DNA from: a virus
Strand: one strand, 5' to 3'
Virus record (IMG/VR): IMGVR_UViG_3300031237_000008
Location: 1 to 49,782 of that record
Length of the DNA stretch: 49,782 nt
The first letter of the stretch is position 1; each line of letters starts with the position of its first letter. This document shows, piece by piece, positions 289 to 34,532 of the stretch. The translations under genes were made by a program, and so were the position numbers. Under the pieces are notes generated by a model, which was given only the letters and a program-made list of their open reading frames with translations, was not told the DNA's origin and made no database searches.

Positions 289-500
289 TGGGTGCTCTCC
301 TTTTTGTAGTATGCCCGCGTCCGGGCTGCACAGTTGGGGCAGAGCAGTAAATGCATCTCCGCCGGGTTGGGTTGATATGGGGTGTTATGTGGTGCAAACA
401 GGTTGATATAGCGCCAGTCATTGGGGAGCGTTGGGCCTGAACCGTGTTCGCTGCATCCTGGCGAGTCGCACGTCCAATGCTGACTCTTGCTGACGGACAT
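285..500 (-). CDS. hypothetical early protein, possible zinc ribbon
   Basis: 71-aa track ORF. GGAGGA lies upstream of ATG 500 and the promoter at 522-550 is immediately upstream. Contains C-x4-C and C-x2-C pairs. Confidence 0.65.
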   Translation of the reverse strand: MSVSKSQHWTCDSPGCSEHGSGPTLPNDWRYINLFAPHNTPYQPNPAEMHLLLCPNCAARTRAYYKKESTQ

Positions 501-521
501 TGATATTATCCTCCGCGCACA

Positions 522-2035: not shown

Positions 2036-2290
2036 ATGACACGCAAAGACTACATCGCAATCGCGGAGGCGCTGAGGTTTGCACGGGAGCACGAGACGGA
2101 AGCCTATCTCCGCCTGCCAGAGCACCAGCAATCGAAGCTAGCGGTAATCGGCATCACCACGGCGGCGGAGTACATCGCCAACGCCATGCAGGACGACAAC
2201 CCCCGCTTTGACCGGGACCACTTTTTGAAAGTCGTTCGCGGGGAGCGGGAGTTGCAGAGCAGGCCGAAGCGGGCGGGGAGGGGAGCATGA
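2036..2290 (+). CDS. hypothetical early protein
   Basis: 84-aa ORF with an AAGGAG RBS. Confidence 0.65.
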   Translation: MTRKDYIAIAEALRFAREHETEAYLRLPEHQQSKLAVIGITTAAEYIANAMQDDNPRFDRDHFLKVVRGERELQSRPKRAGRGA

Positions 2291-2511
2291 GTAAGCGCAA
2301 GTTTTATCGGACGGTGTTTCAGTATGAGGTTCTATCCGAGGAGCCGCTTCCCGATTGCATGACTCTGGAACAAATCAGTTACGAAACAATGGAGGGCCAT
2401 TGTTCGGGGATGTTTCTCGAAACAACAAAGCAGGAGGTAACAGCACGGAGCATGGTAACGCTGCTCTTGGCGCAGGGGAGTGACCCGGAGTTTTTCGGGT
2501 TGCAAGAGTAG
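2287..2511 (+). CDS. hypothetical early protein
   Basis: 74-aa ORF. ATGA overlap with the previous stop; GGGGAGGGGAG upstream. Confidence 0.6.
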   Translation: MSKRKFYRTVFQYEVLSEEPLPDCMTLEQISYETMEGHCSGMFLETTKQEVTARSMVTLLLAQGSDPEFFGLQE

Positions 2512-2590
2512 CACGGCGGGGCACCTGCCCAGCCGCCCCCACTGGCGCAACAATCCAGCCGGGGCGAGTAGGCAGGACAAGGAGACAACA

Positions 2591-2722
2591 ATGAGATACA
2601 ACGTCAACACAGCAAGGATTATCTATTACATGGGTTTCCTCATGGCGTACCTTGAGGAGTACCCCGAAGCAGCGGATGAGGTACGCGCAGCCCTGGCACA
2701 GCTTGACGCGCTAGGCCAGTAA
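2591..2722 (+). CDS. hypothetical small protein (43 aa)
   Basis: Internal ATG of track ORF 2480-2722, preceded by AAGGAG. The longer version overlaps the previous gene. Confidence 0.5.
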   Translation: MRYNVNTARIIYYMGFLMAYLEEYPEAADEVRAALAQLDALGQ

Positions 2723-2758: not shown

Positions 2759-2911
2759 ATGGCAAACATGGAGCCGGGGAAGCGTGGTGGCGGTTTGACG
2801 ACTGGCGATACCCGCTTTATCGCCACGGCAACCCTGGAGGAATTGCGGTTCCACAACGTCAACAAGCTGCTGGCCGCGCTGGGCGCGGAGAGGGAGAAGG
2901 TCAATGGCTGA
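2759..2911 (+). CDS. hypothetical small protein (50 aa, below the track cutoff)
   Basis: AGGAGG RBS. Starts ATGGCAAACATG, the same 12 nt as gene 1798. Its 3' end contains the first copy of a 35-bp repeat. Confidence 0.45.
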   Translation: MANMEPGKRGGGLTTGDTRFIATATLEELRFHNVNKLLAALGAEREKVNG

Positions 2912-3032
2912 GACGAAAGTGATGTTCTGTCCGTGTGCGGTAGCCGGGGCCATCCCGCCGAAGGAGGACTGGCCGTATATCCTGCTGTATCTAGTGGGAC
3001 TAGCGGCGATGTTGTGGTTTGGAGGGAGGTAA
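2904..3032 (+). CDS. hypothetical small membrane protein (42 aa)
   Basis: GGGAGAAGG RBS. ATG overlaps the end of the previous ORF. Hydrophobic stretch YILLYLVGLAAMLWF. Confidence 0.4.
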   Translation: MAETKVMFCPCAVAGAIPPKEDWPYILLYLVGLAAMLWFGGR

Positions 3033-7428: not shown

Positions 7429-7463
7429 ACTGCCGCGCAATCAGCAAGCGACAAAGATATTTT

Positions 7464-7655
7464 CGGTCGGGGTCGGGGTCGAGGTCGTGGTCATGGTCGG
7501 GGTCGGGGTCGAGGTCGTGGTCATGGTCGAGGTCGGGGTCGAGGTCGGGGTTGAGTTCGGGGTCGGGGTCGGGGTTGAGGTCGTGGTCGAGTTCGAGGTC
7601 GAGGTCGTGGTTGAGTTCGGGGTCGGGGTCGTGGTCGAGGTCGTGGTTGAGGTCT
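7464..7655. repeat. 32 tandem hexanucleotide units (NGGTCG)n with 30- and 60-bp higher-order duplications
   Basis: Read directly: cggtcg gggtcg gggtcg aggtcg tggtca ... aggtct. Segments 7470-7499 and 7500-7529 are identical. Confidence 0.95.
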
Positions 7656-13800: not shown

Positions 13801-13883
13801 TGCGGGGGACGGGATTTGAACCCGCACGGGTTTTGCCCAGAGCCTTCCAAGGACTCCGCGGCTGCCAATTTCGCCACCCCCGC
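13801..13883 (-). tRNA. class II (long variable arm) tRNA with a Leu-like body and apparent anticodon UGG (Pro); CCA not encoded
   Basis: Hand fold: acceptor GCGGGGG/CCCCCGC, D-arm GCG-AAATTGGCAGC-CGC, anticodon arm GAGTC-CTTGGAA-GGCTC, 14-nt variable arm TGGGCAAAACCCGT, T-arm GCGGG-TTCAAAT-CCCGT, discriminator A. Confidence 0.85.
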
Positions 13884-14713: not shown

Positions 14714-15701
14714 GTTAATCAAGGCGGGTCACATCGCTCCGGGGGATGTTGATGAAAGAAGCATATCCGACGTACAGACAGATGACCTTCGAGGATACAC
14801 CCAATGTCACTTCTTCGCTGGCATTGGGGTCTGGAGTTACGCCCTCCGTTGCGCCGGATGGACCGATGACCGTCCGGTTTGGACCGGCTCCTGCCCCTGT
14901 CAGCCGTTCTCGTCGAGCGGCAAGGGGGAGGGTTTTACCGACCCCCGCCACCTCTGGCCTGAGTGGTTCCGGCTCATCCGGGAGTATCGCCCTGTCGCAG
15001 TCTTTGGCGAACAGGTTGGAGCTGCGATTCGACATGGATGGCTCGACCTTGTTCAAGCAGACCTGGAGAGTGAGGGTTACGCCGTCGGGGCGGCAGTTAT
15101 GGGCGCACACAGCCTCGGGGCGCCGCACATCCGGCAAAGACTGTACTTCGTGGCCGACGCCGAACACGCCCAGCGGCGGCCCGAACACGAAGGCGACGGA
15201 GTCACACACGGGCGGCATGGACTTGGACGGCGCGGCGCTACTAGCGAGCTGGGCGACACCGGTAGTGTACGACGCGGAGGGAGGCGGTTCGATAACCGCA
15301 TCGAACAGGAAAGCGGCGGGGTTGGACAGGCCGAGCGGGGCATCCTACGGGACGGCGCTGCGGCACCAAGTCCTGCAAGCATCCTGGAGTACGCCGAGCA
15401 GTCGGGATTGGAAGGACACTCCGGGGATGAGCGCGACGGGAACGAACCCGGACGGCTCAGAGCAGACGCGGCTCGACCAACTTCCAAGGCAAGCCTCACA
15501 AACGGCTTCTGGCGAGACGCCATCTGGCTCCCCTGCCGCGACGGGAAAGCCCGGCCAACTCAACCCGGCCTTTTCCCGCTGGCTCATGGGTCTCCCGCCA
15601 GAGTGGGACGACTGCGCGGTTACGGCAATGCAATCGTCGCCCCGCAAGCGGAGGCGTTCGTGAGGGCCTACATGCAGCGACTCAGGGGGACTACATGTTG
15701 A
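14661..15701 (+). CDS. DNA (cytosine-5) methyltransferase, frame A
   Basis: Motif I FFAGIGV (14811), [10 protein letters not shown] (14895), VI FGEQV (15006), [14 protein letters not shown] (15126), then a low-complexity R/G/E/D stretch, then [14 protein letters not shown] (15621, motif X-like). GTG start with AGGAGG upstream. Confidence 0.85.
14746..15663 (+). CDS. overlapping +1-frame ORF (frame B) carrying W-x-T-P repeats and a motif IX-like [16 protein letters not shown]
   Basis: 305-aa ORF lying wholly inside the C5-MTase gene. SWPTP (15148), SWATP (15247), SWSTP (15382) and [16 protein letters not shown] (15559-15606) fall where frame A is low complexity. Confidence 0.5.
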
Positions 15702-17314
15702 TACGGGGTAATGCGCGCCACATCCCGCTGGCCGATGAGTCGGTGCAGTGCTGCGTTTGCTCTCCTCCATATTGGGGGTTGCGAGATTACGGGGTTCCTG
15801 GCCAGCTCGGCCTGGAGAAGACGCCAGAGGAGTACGTCGCCAACATGGTAGCCGTGTTCCGCGAGGTCAGGAGGGTGCTGAGGCCGGATGGGACGCTGTT
15901 TCTCAACCTCGGCGACTCTTACGCTGGCGGTGGGCGCGGCGGCAACCCGGACGAGTCGCCATTCCGCAAGCAGGCCACGAACACTGGTAGCGTGACGGGG
16001 CGCGCGAAAGACCCCGGCATCGTTCCACTTGGCCTCAAGCCCAAAGACCTGGTGGGCATACCCTGGCGCGTAGCTTTCGCCCTGCAACAGCCTTACTACG
16101 CCGGTCGCATTAAGCGAGTCGAGGACCGTGTCTGGCTGGCCGCCATGATTGACGCGGAGGGATGCATCTTCATCCACAAGCGCAAGGAGGGCCAGTCCAA
16201 CGGGCAGGGATATTCCAGGAAGAACGACAGCTACGGCTCCGGATTGGAAGTCGCTAACTGCTCGGAAGCTGTGGTGAGGCGCTGCATGGAGATTGCCGGG
16301 GCGGGAAGCATCTGTAGCCAGGGCTCGGAGCAGAATAGCCGCCGCAAGCAGGTACTCCACCGCTGGAATCTTCGGTCAAACGAGTGCCGCGATATTCTCC
16401 GCGAAGTGTACCCGCACCTTGTGGCCAAGCAGCAACAGGCCAGGCTGTCCATCGGCTGCCCCAGTTCCGGCGAAAAGGCGGATGCGGCCCACCGCGCTCT
16501 TATGGGACTGCACAACGGAATCGCAACTGATGTGGACTTTCCCCCGCCGGCATCCATGTACGAGCCTGGATGGTGGCTAAGGCAGGATTGTATATGGTCA
16601 AAGTTGAATCCCATGCCGGAGTCAGTGACCGACAGGTGTACCAAATCGCACGAATACATTTTCCTGCTCACGAAGTCGGCGCGGTACTTCTATGACGCGG
16701 AGGCGGTGAAGGAGCCCGGCACGCGCTATGAGTGGAACACGCAGAAGTTCAAGGGCGGCGACCTGACACGGCATCACGGCTCGACTTGCGGCAAGGAAGA
16801 AGGCGACCCGAACGCGGGTCGCAATCTCCGCTCCGTCTGGCACATCGCCACCCAGCCCTACAAGGAAGCCCACTTCGCCACCTTCCCGGAGAAGCTGGTA
16901 GAGCCGTGCATCTTGGCGGGGACGAGCGAGCGGGGTTGCTGCGCGGAGTGCGGTGCGCCGTGGGAGCGGGTGGTGGAGCGCGGACTGACGGCACACGACG
17001 GCGCGACTGATAGCGCCTACAGTCAAGGCACCACGGCAAATCGGCTGGCCCTGCTCCGGCAGGCTGCGCGTGAACGCGGAGAGGAATACTCCAGCGCCCA
17101 CAAGACCCTCGGCTGGAAGCCCACCTGCTCCTGCGGCGCGGCTACCAAGCCCTGCATCGTCCTCGACCCCTTCTGTGGCTCTGGCACGGTAGGCGTGGTC
17201 TGCGCCCGATTCAACCGGGAGTTCATCGGCCTGGAGTTGAACGAGAAGTACATCGAGTTAGCCAAGAAGCGACAGGTCGGAGTCCAGCCATTTCTCGCGG
17301 AGGCTACATGTTGA
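15695..17314 (+). CDS. beta-class N4/N6 DNA methyltransferase with an internal LAGLIDADG-like domain and a zinc ribbon
   Basis: SPPY motif IV near the N-terminus, IWSKLNPMPESV..R..KSHEYIFLLTKS, and motif I DPFCGSGT near the C-terminus. CCAECG...CSCG ribbon. Confidence 0.9.
   Translation: MLIRGNARHIPLADESVQCCVCSPPYWGLRDYGVPGQLGLEKTPEEYVANMVAVFREVRRVLRPDGTLFLNLGDSYAGGGRGGNPDESPFRKQATNTGSVTGRAKDPGIVPLGLKPKDLVGIPWRVAFALQQPYYAGRIKRVEDRVWLAAMIDAEGCIFIHKRKEGQSNGQGYSRKNDSYGSGLEVANCSEAVVRRCMEIAGAGSICSQGSEQNSRRKQVLHRWNLRSNECRDILREVYPHLVAKQQQARLSIGCPSSGEKADAAHRALMGLHNGIATDVDFPPPASMYEPGWWLRQDCIWSKLNPMPESVTDRCTKSHEYIFLLTKSARYFYDAEAVKEPGTRYEWNTQKFKGGDLTRHHGSTCGKEEGDPNAGRNLRSVWHIATQPYKEAHFATFPEKLVEPCILAGTSERGCCAECGAPWERVVERGLTAHDGATDSAYSQGTTANRLALLRQAARERGEEYSSAHKTLGWKPTCSCGAATKPCIVLDPFCGSGTVGVVCARFNREFIGLELNEKYIELAKKRQVGVQPFLAEATC
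16091..16567 (+). other. in-frame LAGLIDADG (I-CreI-like, single-motif) domain inserted into the methyltransferase core
   Basis: VWLAAMIDAEGCIFI, GLEVANCSEAVVRRCMEIAGAGSI and WNLRSNECRDILREVYPHLVAKQQQARL lie between the conserved MTase segments GIPWRVAFALQQ and GWWLRQDCIW. Confidence 0.65.
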
Positions 17315-32889: not shown

Positions 32890-33787
32890 TTATATGGCGC
32901 TCGCATCCGCTTTTATAGTCTTGAAGCGCAGATTCACCGTATCCAGCGTCTTGGCCGCGAATGCGAACCAGTACGAGGCGAAGGTTGCAATCTCGCCCAC
33001 CGGGTCAGCAGCCGACCTGCCAGGATGGAAGACATGGATGCTGAACTTCTGGTTGCGCGGGTCTTCGATGCGGTCAGGCCCACGACCAGCCAGGTCAACG
33101 ATTCCAAGTCCGCCCTCACCGAAGATGTAGGTGTAGTACTTCTTGTTGGGGGCAGCACCACCGTCGTCTCCGACGTTGGTGGTTTCCAGCAGCCGGACTC
33201 CACCCACCATGCCCACCTCGCCCTGCAACACCGCGTTGCCGTTCGAGTACTTCATGGCCTCGATGAAGCCACCGGCGGTATTGTCGGAGATGAGGTCGAA
33301 TACGACATAGGGATGGATGATGCCCAGAAACTCGTTGCCGCTGCGGGGGCGTACGTTGATGCCCTTGAGCAGCGCAACTTGCTTCTTAAAGTCCGAGGCA
33401 GTCAGGGTTGCGCCGATGGTGGAAACCATGGCGGCGGTGTTCGAGTCAACCTCGGTGCGAATCATGGTGTCTACTGAGCCAGCAGCCCGATAGCTGAGGT
33501 TATCAACCATGCGGGTGCGGGGTTCATTGATGTCGGTCAGGTCGAGCAACTGGGAGCTGGACGTGAAGTCCGAATATTGCTCGACAGTGGCCGATACGGT
33601 CGAGGTGGTTTCAGAGACCGGAGCGCCAATCACGCCTTCCGCTGACGGGACAGTATTGAATCCGGGCAGCGTAGAGCGGAACATCTGAATGGTCTTGCCG
33701 GAACCCTGGGGCATCGAAAACGTGTCCGCTACTTGAGCGAAACGGAACATCGCTTCCAGTCGGTCCAGCGGGCGCTTGTCATAGAAG
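32890..33787 (-). CDS. major capsid protein, exon 2 (HK97-fold, N4-gp56-like family)
   Basis: Track ORF 32890-33750 extended in frame to the proposed 3' splice site. ...FAQVADTFSMPQGSGKTIQMFR... fits the N4-gp56-type coat pattern but lacks its N-terminus. Confidence 0.85.
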
Positions 33788-34470
33788 CATCTACTCCGCC
33801 TACTTTCGCGGCGGTGTGGACTATATCATCTTGGGACGACCAGGACGCATCTTGTAGTCCTTATCGCACCAAGGAGAACGTGTAGTCTCTGGGGACTTCC
33901 CATTGAGTATGATGAACTGCTTTAACAGTTCCATCTCCCGATTGTTGTATCTTCCATTTTCGGGTACTGGGTGGCTGAGGCGCGACCGACAGAACTCCAA
34001 TACGAGTACCGCCTTCTGTCGCTTTACCGTATGCGTGTCCCATAATGGCAGCAGGTTCGGTAGTAACCGTTCCAGCCTCTTTATGCCATTCACATGGACA
34101 TCCATCCGGTCTTTCCAGTGGGCCTTCTTTCCCGACATCTTGTGGTGGTAGAAATAGTGCCCCACCCCAAGTTTGCCAAGAATCTTGCCGCACTTTTCCA
34201 GTAGGGGGCGCTCGGTGTTCACGAACACCATCGAGGGATATATCTGTTTCCGTACCTTGTTCCAGTACAGACCCAAGCTTCCCTCGCCCTCTAGAAATGC
34301 CATCAACCAACCCAATTCAAACTGGGTTGCCTGCTGATTGACCATTTCGCCATCGGCAAAATGCTGCCTGTCGATGATGCTCATCTGTCCCATTTATCAC
34401 CTCGTCAGTATGGGAAGCTTTAGGTTATTCCAGCAAATAGTTCTCTTTTACAACCGCCTTCTATCTGTTG
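33788..34470 (-). mobile_element. group I intron (683 nt) carrying a LAGLIDADG homing endonuclease
   Basis: 5' exon ends in U (34471). P1: exon CAACCGU pairs with intron GCGGUUG (34457-34451), with a U-G wobble at the splice site. P10: intron AUAGAAG (34464-34458) pairs with the first 7 nt of exon 2, CUUCUAU. The intron ends in G (33788). Splicing restores one frame. Confidence 0.7.
33821..34393 (-). CDS. LAGLIDADG homing endonuclease (intron-encoded)
   Basis: 190-aa ORF with a GAGGTGA RBS. LMAFLEGEGSL LAGLIDADG motif. Confidence 0.9.
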   Translation of the reverse strand: MGQMSIIDRQHFADGEMVNQQATQFELGWLMAFLEGEGSLGLYWNKVRKQIYPSMVFVNTERPLLEKCGKILGKLGVGHYFYHHKMSGKKAHWKDRMDVHVNGIKRLERLLPNLLPLWDTHTVKRQKAVLVLEFCRSRLSHPVPENGRYNNREMELLKQFIILNGKSPETTRSPWCDKDYKMRPGRPKMI

Positions 34471-34532
34471 ACGGTTGCCAAATGGGCGAGAGTGGCTGTT
34501 TGTGTAGTCAACCCCGCCGGTGCATAAGCCAT
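34471..34532 (-). CDS. major capsid protein, exon 1 (first 20 codons plus 2 nt)
   Basis: AGGAG RBS 7 nt upstream of ATG 34532. MAYAPAGLTTQTATLAHLAT(V) joins in frame to FYDKRPLDRLEAMFRF... Confidence 0.65.

Follow-up and report, generated by a model that had tools for sequence, protein, structure and literature searches.

A probable mobile group I intron whose endonuclease gene overlaps the ribozyme core in a phage major capsid gene

We analysed the whole of IMG/VR virus record IMGVR_UViG_3300031237_000008 (positions 1 to 49,782, hereafter the window), which looks like most of a tailed-phage genome of ~50 kb. On its minus strand, the major capsid gene is interrupted by a 683-nucleotide (nt) insertion. 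The insertion is very probably a mobile group I intron carrying the gene of a LAGLIDADG homing endonuclease, and we put the probability of this reading at about 0.9. When joined, the two exons give a capsid protein that is collinear with intact homologues. The insertion is assigned to group I because it is homologous to a relative without an open reading frame (ORF) that matches the group I model, and because its helices covary. The endonuclease reading frame has been extended into the ribozyme from both sides, a condition termed core creep. The coordinates of the features are collected in Table 1.

The interrupted capsid gene and its intact homologues

The ORF at 33750..32890 on the minus strand encodes a capsid protein without its N-terminus and has its own ATG, which is Met34 of the complete protein. 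The capsid protein matches Pfam Phage_capsid_4 with 32 bits (cut-off 27). Further upstream, the sequence AGGAG precedes an ATG at 34532, and the frame opened there translates as MAYAPAGLTTQTATLAHLATV before it meets a UAG at 34463..34461, which is 9 nt inside the insertion and within the P10 guide. Excision of 34470..33788 fuses GU with C, so that ...LATV is followed by FYDKRPLDRLEAMFRF... in a capsid protein of 319 amino acids (aa). The predicted nucleotide sequence of the ligated junction is GGCAACCGTCTTCTATGAC, and the predicted peptide across it is ...HLATVFYDK.... The original prediction, made from the sequence of the window, had described the truncated capsid ORF, the strong ribosome-binding site driving a short peptide into a stop, and cuts after U34471 and G33788 that join the exons in one frame; all of these were found on the minus strand as described. 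Its placement of the split after codon 20 has to be corrected, as the intron sits inside codon 21 (GU/C, Val).

The joined 319-aa protein found 339 homologues when used as a query, and among the 120 homologues listed most are 318-319 aa long with 100% query coverage. The exon junction is free of gaps in an alignment with more than 100 intact proteins of ~318 aa. For example, protein P0002 (81% identical, 318 aa) reads MSYAPAGLTTQTATLPHLATVFYDKRPLDRLEAMFRF across the junction stretch. The capsid relatives in IMG/VR are uninterrupted in 21 of 21 cases. In the 82% identical gene of contig L017, the empty site reads TTGGCAACCGT followed directly by CTACTATGACAAG, with one nearby base differing from the exon junction of the window, and the longer stretch of an empty site of this type is TTGGCAACCGTCTACTATGACAAGCG. 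Alignment of the spliced product to N4-gp56-type capsid proteins, a check that had been proposed with the prediction, runs end to end with no insertion or deletion at the junction. Chance falls far short of explaining such agreement at the junction.

The Met at 33750 is not the true start, because tblastn alignments against phage records begin at residue 21 or 22, upstream of Met34. The 33 residues preceding Met34 are conserved in all intact homologues, and the possibility that intact homologues begin at 33750, considered at the outset, does not agree with these alignments. Relatives in the phage records are annotated as major capsid protein, and the JGI name for the homologues is 'N4-gp56 family major capsid protein'. 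The predicted spliced product is, by these similarities, an HK97-type (N4-gp56 family) major capsid protein. Terminase and portal genes lie upstream of the capsid gene in the window. The proportion of guanine plus cytosine is 0.50 in the intron and 0.59 in the whole window.

The interruption has practical consequences for annotation. Gene callers shorten the capsid protein to 274 aa (the recorded protein, P0001) or 286 aa (the longest ORF), with a loss of 45 or 33 N-terminal residues, respectively. The endonuclease is called a hypothetical protein and has no name or Pfam domain in the protein database. The corrected capsid gene model joins 34532..34471 to 33787..32890.

Table 1. Features of the interrupted capsid gene and introns of the same family (positions refer to the window unless a contig is named)
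Feature	Position	Strand	Details
Capsid exon 1	34532..34471	minus	ATG to first two bases of Val21
P1 5' strand	34477..34471	minus	CAACCGU; exon-1 end, U34471 in U-G wobble
Group I intron (predicted)	34470..33788	minus	683 nt
Internal guide	34464..34451	minus	P10 guide AUAGAAG (34464..34458), then P1 3' strand GCGGUUG (34457..34451)
P10	34464..34458 with 33787..33781	minus	AUAGAAG with CUUCUAU
P3 5' strand	34445..34440	minus	GAGAAC; partner 33879..33874
P4 5' strand	34435..34430	minus	UGCUGG; partner UCAGCA 34337..34332
P5a hairpin	34415..34388	minus	UCCCAU/AUGGGA
Homing endonuclease ORF	34393..33821	minus	190 aa; single LAGLIDADG motif LGWLMAFLEGEGSL
Extra peripheral hairpin in L5	34376..34351	minus	pairing checked by reading sequences
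5' core/ORF overlap	34345..34323	minus	P5 3' strand 34343..34341, J5/4, P4 3' strand 34337..34332, P6 5' strand (GG 34331..34330 and CCCA 34326..34323)
L6	34322..33903	minus	420 nt; endonuclease gene body looped out of P6
3' core/ORF overlap	33902..33874	minus	P6 3' strand (UGGG 33902..33899, pairs with CCCA 34326..34323), J6/7, P7 5' strand (G-A(bulge)-GACUA 33889..33883), P3 3' strand (GUUCUC 33879..33874)
P8	33873..33830	minus	extended hairpin closed by CUUGG/CCAAG; encodes endonuclease C-terminal tail
J8/7, then P7 3' strand	33829..33818	minus	AUGAUA, then UAGUCC
P9 hairpin	33814..33796	minus	GAAA tetraloop
Terminal G (omega G)	33788	minus	
Capsid exon 2	33787..32890	minus	stop codon 32892..32890; first 7 nt CUUCUAU pair with P10 guide
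Introns of L003, L005, L006 (3' end cut), L007, L008, L014, L016			site 1, as in window; endonuclease ORF present
L012 first intron (L012a)	L012 2463..3108		site 1; endonuclease ORF present
L012 second intron (L012b)	L012 3208..3423		216 nt; site 2, 33 codons downstream; no ORF
L013 intron			site 2; endonuclease ORF present

Splice sites and fold of the predicted intron

Starting from homologues of the endonuclease and from capsid calls that were truncated, we recovered nine other introns of this family from metagenomic phages (Table 1), and the intron of L008 is identical to those of L009, L010, and L011. Removal of the introns in L012, L014, and L016 leaves capsids collinear with intact ones. 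Every relative with the intron retains the frame, the start codon, and the ribosome-binding site of exon 1, and 8 of 10 introns have an in-frame stop at their third or fourth codon (TAG in seven, TGA in L013).

The pairings at the splice sites agree with those originally described. GCGGUUG pairs with the last seven nucleotides of exon 1 with a U-G wobble at the splice site (P1), AUAGAAG pairs with the first seven of exon 2 (P10), and the last intron base is G33788. All ten introns have a U before the 5' splice site and a terminal G; besides the window, the terminal G is seen in nine relatives whose 3' end is complete. The guide changes together with the exons. The P1 pairs are CAACCGU/GCGGUUG, GACCGU/GCGGUC, GGCGGU/GCCGCC, GACGGU/GCCGUC, and GUUGAU/GUCAAC, the last at site 2; all five variants are fully paired with U-G at the splice site across the ten introns. 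P10 follows exon 2 in the same way (AUAGAAG/CUUCUAU, AGUAG/CUACU, AAUAG/CUAUU, ACUGG/CCAGU, and UCAU/AUGG).

We placed helices P1, P3, P4, P5, P5a, P6, P7 (in a pseudoknot with P3), P8, and P9 on a MAFFT alignment of six introns that had been built without reference to structure. In these six introns 92-94% of cells were paired, and 13-14 pairs had changes on both sides. None of 500 shuffles in either of two runs reached the observed value in four of five measures; the fifth measure, further pair types, was reached by 0 of 500 shuffles in one run and by 2 of 500 in the other. Structures slid by one to three columns were 29-46% paired. RNAalifold on its own found P1, the long-range P3, P5a, P8, and P9 with its GAAA loop. 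It also proposed an alternative partner of the P4 5' strand (columns 42-49 with 536-543), which is invariant, lacks covariation, and conflicts with the Rfam-supported P4; we treated it as a chance pairing.

In the set of ten introns, each strand was paired with its own partner and with partners swapped between introns. The paired fractions for own and swapped partners were 1.00 and 0.71 for P1 (5 variants), 0.95 and 0.62 for P3 (7 variants), 0.92 and 0.65 for the long-range P6 (9 variants), 0.93 and 0.90 for P7 (3 variants), and 0.96 and 0.35 for P8 (9 variants). P3, P5, P6, P7, P8, and P9 covary, and the pairing of P1, P5a, and P10 is also kept by compensatory changes. P4 matches the Rfam consensus. 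The P7 strands G-A(bulge)-GACUA and UAGUCC, a candidate guanosine-binding site, are conserved or compensated in the ten introns. The family lacks P2, and several members have a short P8. The extra hairpin in L5 is confined to the window, L005, and L006, whose sequences differ there but fold in each case.

The ORF-less intron L012b connects the family to known group I introns. It matches Rfam Intron_gpI (RF00028) with 50.6 bits (gathering score 50, E 3e-12) over the full model (1-253), the match being listed at L012:3184-3416. It folds more stably than shuffled sequence (z = -3.0), and its core strands align with those of the window intron. The window intron itself matches the same Rfam model in two pieces, with 13.5 bits at 34435..34305 (model 60-139, the P4-P6 half) and 13.6 bits at 33905..33797 (model 126-253, the P6'-P9 half). 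Both halves lie on the expected strand and follow one another in the correct order, and the match is split because of the 420-nt ORF body in L6. The Rfam comparison suggested with the prediction was borne out in its ordered half matches and in the ORF-less relative, but not in the score of the window intron. The group I identity claimed there is upheld: all core helices can be placed, those from P3 to P9 covary except for the invariant P4, compensatory changes occur in nine relatives, and an ORF-less relative is above the Rfam threshold.

We assigned P6 as a long-range helix with the gene body as its loop because of the ORF-less intron, the compensated variants, and the Rfam alignment. The ORF-less intron reads GG-CAA-CCCGG-loop-UCGGG-AG-UCC, the long-range pairing is compensated in L016 (CCGA/UCGG), L013 (CCCC/GGGG), and L014 (CACC/GGUG), and the Rfam alignment of L012b also places P6 long-range. 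This assignment replaced our first model, in which P6 was a local hairpin (34329..34308) and the ORF body lay in J6/7. The local hairpin might be an alternative fold that exists before the distal P6 strand, 420 nt downstream, is transcribed.

Several observations weigh against the group I reading or parts of it. The window intron stays below the Rfam gathering score of 50 bits (13.5 and 13.6 in two pieces), the Rfam gathering run on the window returned transfer RNA (tRNA) only and no Intron_gpI match, and an Rfam scan of four related loci as a whole gave no group I match. P4 is invariant, and the comparison is uninformative on this helix. The local hairpin, CAACCCAG-UUUGAA-UUGGGUUG on the minus strand, is in competition with the P6 5' strand. 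Its conservation, partial in the closest relatives, equals that of the long-range P6 in the first six sequences, and only the more distant relatives favour the long-range helix. The endonuclease of the window scores 19.5 bits against Pfam LAGLIDADG_3, below the cut-off of 22.5. A homodimeric endonuclease usually prefers some site symmetry, and no pseudo-palindrome is evident at the homing site, where at most 5 of 11 positions are symmetric. Finally, all related intron sequences are from metagenomic contigs.

The endonuclease gene and its overlap with the ribozyme

The original prediction of a free-standing LAGLIDADG ORF with its own ribosome-binding site holds: GAGGUG lies 5 nt upstream of the ATG of the endonuclease ORF, and the predicted fold of its product matches the I-CreI family. 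An alternative start at 34345 (Met17) is the counterpart of the start in L003 and L008. In six proteins of the family, residues E35, G36, E37, G38, and S39 of the motif are invariant, and five of six members match Pfam LAGLIDADG_3 (best E 1.8e-5). The AlphaFold model (predicted local distance difference test 76, predicted template modelling (TM) score 0.75) has an alpha-beta-beta-alpha-beta-beta-alpha core. All of the top 47 Foldseek matches in the PDB are I-CreI-type enzymes or engineered derivatives (I-CreI, I-MsoI, I-CvuI, I-Vdi141I, and the I-DmoI/I-CreI chimera E-DreI), with a probability of 1.0 and TM scores of 0.45-0.67; E is ~2e-6 for the best of them. The model thus indicates an I-CreI-like single-motif LAGLIDADG enzyme, which with its one motif is presumably a homodimer.

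Searches for the element outside the family were negative in each set covered. A tblastn search of 50,697 phage records with the endonuclease (E up to 1) and a blastn search of the phage records with the 1.9-kb region gave no match, and the GTDB genomes contained neither a detectable relative of the intron element nor a prophage relative.

The intron outside the ORF comprises 77 nt on the 5' side and 33 nt on the 3' side, as had been counted, and the expectation that the core must overlap the coding sequence proved right, with 153 of 263 ribozyme nucleotides also serving as codons. The upstream overlap of 71 nt contains the P5a 3' strand, the peripheral hairpin, the P5 3' strand, J5/4, the P4 3' strand, and the P6 5' strand. 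The downstream overlap of 82 nt contains the P6 3' strand, J6/7, the P7 5' strand, the P3 3' strand, P8, and J8/7, and it ends with the endonuclease stop UAG (33823..33821), which coincides with the first three bases of the P7 3' strand. The Shine-Dalgarno sequence GAGGUG (34403..34398) is in the P5a loop, and the AUG (34393..34391) is in the P5a 3' strand.

Conservation in the overlaps is driven by the RNA, as four comparisons indicate. The share of third codon positions that are invariant is 14% in the L6 body and 70-100% in the overlaps. The conserved CCCCAGAGACUACACG is read in another frame in L007, after a 4-nt insertion. The ORF-less L012b keeps AUGGACAAUCAGCAGGCAACC, which equals the endonuclease start sequence in L003. 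The ORF ends also vary among relatives, with starts in P4, P5a, or P5 and stops in P6, P8, J8/7, P7, P9, or the 3' tail.

The ribosome-binding site is in the P5a loop, the AUG is in the stem, and the reading frame passes through the core. A given RNA molecule can therefore probably either be translated into the endonuclease or fold into the ribozyme, but not both at once. A ribosome on the ORF would unwind P4, P6, P7, P3, and P8.

From the sequence features, we infer the following course of splicing and homing. The late capsid transcript would include the intron, and ribosomes translating exon 1 would halt at the UAG 9 nt inside it. The RNA would fold into a P2-less core with P1, P3-P9, the P3/P7 pseudoknot, and the GAAA loop on P9. 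A free guanosine would attack after U34471 in the P1 U-G wobble, P10 would align exon 2, and the exons would be joined after G33788 into the mRNA for the 319-aa capsid protein. In a co-infecting relative whose capsid allele lacks the intron, the endonuclease would cut near GCAACCGT/CT(A/T)CTAT, and repair after the cut would copy the intron in. On this basis we propose that the intron self-splices, that the endonuclease is active, that homing takes place, and that translation and folding affect each other.

Alternatives, mobility and known systems

An insertion that stays in the RNA is very improbable in our view. The capsid gene would then be dead or split, with the protein made from Met34 (33750) or as two polypeptides, and the endonuclease would be a free-standing gene. 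The ORF 33750..32890 does have its own ATG, and free-standing endonuclease genes adjoin capsid genes in relatives, such as the HNH_3 ORF in L002. However, the conserved residues before Met34 and the exon 1 frame, start, and ribosome-binding site retained in every intron-bearing relative would then have to be explained, as would RNA-type covariation in the endonuclease flanks, guides that track the exons, and a relative that passes the Rfam threshold. An intein, a group II intron, or a translational bypass is less credible still, and is suggested by nothing other than the bare fact of an interrupted coding gene. The UAG 9 nt into the insertion in the exon-1 frame and the separate start of the ORF argue against an intein. 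Group II introns have a 5' GUGYG, a domain V, and usually a reverse-transcriptase ORF; this intron begins with CAACAG, its ORF is of the LAGLIDADG type with no reverse-transcriptase ORF, and the window scan gave no Rfam group II match. To our knowledge, 683 nt is far beyond any translational bypass hop, which counts against a bypass.

A closer alternative concerns how the group I intron splices. I-AniI and several yeast mitochondrial LAGLIDADG proteins help RNA fold as maturases, and the intron may no longer self-splice efficiently, with its LAGLIDADG protein doubling as a maturase. We consider this unlikely, but less so than the two readings above. It agrees with the lean core, with no P2 and a short P8 in several members, and with the 153-nt overlap of ORF and core, as a review links such overlap, of LAGLIDADG ORFs especially, to maturase evolution (Edgell, Chalamcharla and Belfort 2011, PMC3073962). 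On the other side are the ORF-less member in the L012 capsid gene, which could nevertheless be served in trans by the other intron of the same gene, and the invariant catalytic motif, so that endonuclease function is kept.

The family occupies two sites in the capsid gene. The introns of L013 (site 2) and L014 (site 1) are mutually closest, with 65% nucleotide identity vs 50-58% to others; they share the guide GCCGUCUU, and each follows GACGGU. The shared guide and the shared GACGGU form the pattern expected of reverse-splicing transposition, not of endonuclease-driven movement, and the sequences fit an intron that moved to a new site by guide pairing. Relaxed endonuclease specificity is also a possible cause of the two-site occupancy. 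We propose only tentatively, and with more doubt than confidence, that the intron is a case of extreme dual coding (~58% of a working ribozyme would also be read as protein, on both sides of the gene), which would act as a switch between endonuclease translation on one side and ribozyme folding, with it capsid production, on the other, and that the lineage moved between the two capsid sites by reverse splicing. The nine relatives amount to a small natural experiment, with alleles with and without the intron, two sites with retargeted guides, an ORF-less copy, and varied ORF ends. The set can be used to ask how one sequence meets the demands of both an RNA fold and a protein.

Other observations concern the family and its surroundings. 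In L012 (2401..4225), a single capsid gene carries two family introns, and excising both gives a full-length capsid. In L013 (~492..513), a 7-nt insertion at site 1 (GTAT-AAATGCT-GGTAT) shifts the capsid frame, and the AUGCUGG within it resembles the intron P4 strand; imprecise loss of an intron or repair of a break could have left this insertion as a footprint, or it could stem from misassembly of what is a single short contig. Two truncated capsid calls were rejected as introns. The L001 call is a frameshifted assembly: its capsid gene (2840..3000) is intronless, with a stop codon and apparent frameshifts for which long-read assembly errors are the likely cause. The L002 call comes from a capsid gene without an obvious ATG start; this intronless locus has the free-standing HNH_3 gene at 2200..2661 on the opposite (minus) strand, ~250 nt before the capsid coding sequence. 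Scanning for additional copies with DNA patterns gave a chance match (L004), an already known contig (L011), or nothing. The window has no further family introns, as the motif matches at 7437, 7673, and 24806 flank a hexamer array or lie in coding sequence. This array of GGTCGA (7465..7654; 31.7 copies, or 15.8 copies of a 12-mer, with 78-79% matches) is intergenic between two small ORFs.

Elsewhere in the window, a 539-aa ORF (15695..17314, plus strand) matches DNA methyltransferase families in two stretches and HNH in residues 144-254. It may carry an in-frame HNH insertion element like the 'ShiLan' element of phage methylases (PMC11855218). A tRNA gene is located at 13801..13883 (minus strand, 48.6 bits) in the window, and one at 330..401 in L003, ~200 nt upstream of the intron-bearing capsid gene.

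Among known systems, the T4 introns in td, nrdB, and nrdD are phage group I introns in protein-coding genes, the first two with homing endonuclease genes. In these introns an in-frame stop follows soon after the 5' splice site, and RNA structure hides the ribosome-binding site of the endonuclease. The window intron resembles them in these respects, but the T4 endonucleases are of the GIY-YIG or HNH type, their ORFs have little or no core overlap, and the T4 host genes serve nucleotide metabolism. The ORF of I-CreI is in a peripheral loop of a group I intron. I-CreI, from the chloroplast 23S ribosomal RNA intron of Chlamydomonas reinhardtii, is likewise a single-motif homodimeric LAGLIDADG enzyme and the best structural match, but its host gene is an organellar ribosomal RNA gene and not a phage protein-coding gene, and the I-CreI-type matches have only 17-21% sequence identity to the window endonuclease.

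Extension of endonuclease ORFs into ribozyme helices has been described as 'core creep' (Edgell, Chalamcharla and Belfort 2011, PMC3073962, Table 1). In the Synechococcus lividus large-subunit intron, a LAGLIDADG ORF overlaps P6/P7/P3/P8/P9.0/P9 by 81 nt (PMC3073962). The review predicts that the length of the extension varies among relatives (PMC3073962), and the varied ORF starts and stops in the window's intron family directly match such predictions for endonuclease genes settling into introns. Unlike the overlapping examples of that table (9-81 nt), the window overlap is two-sided and reaches 153 nt, and the family has an ORF-less relative that keeps the same core sequence.

The closest phage case is LittleE, in which the splicing of a capsid intron with gp14 was proven by reverse-transcription polymerase chain reaction and N-terminal protein sequencing (Pope et al. 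2013, PMC3706429). The type of that intron was described as 'unclear, most likely group I' (PMC3706429). In both phages the major capsid gene is interrupted, exon 1 ends in U, and the intron ends in G; the LittleE endonuclease gene is also described as related to the LAGLIDADG enzyme I-CreI. However, that gene is on the opposite strand and so cannot share codons with the ribozyme, and the capsid family of the window differs. A capsid-gene group I intron of lactococcal phage Tuc2009 is also mentioned, as cited in PMC3706429. Phage capsid-gene group I introns, one with a LAGLIDADG-type gene, and the overlap of ORF and core have thus been published, and the window intron is no new kind of element. 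What it adds is a well-supported group I intron in the most heavily expressed late phage gene of an uncultured ~50-kb phage lineage. Compared with these systems, its unusual features are the large two-sided overlap, in which more than half of the ribozyme is also coding, and its informative relatives.

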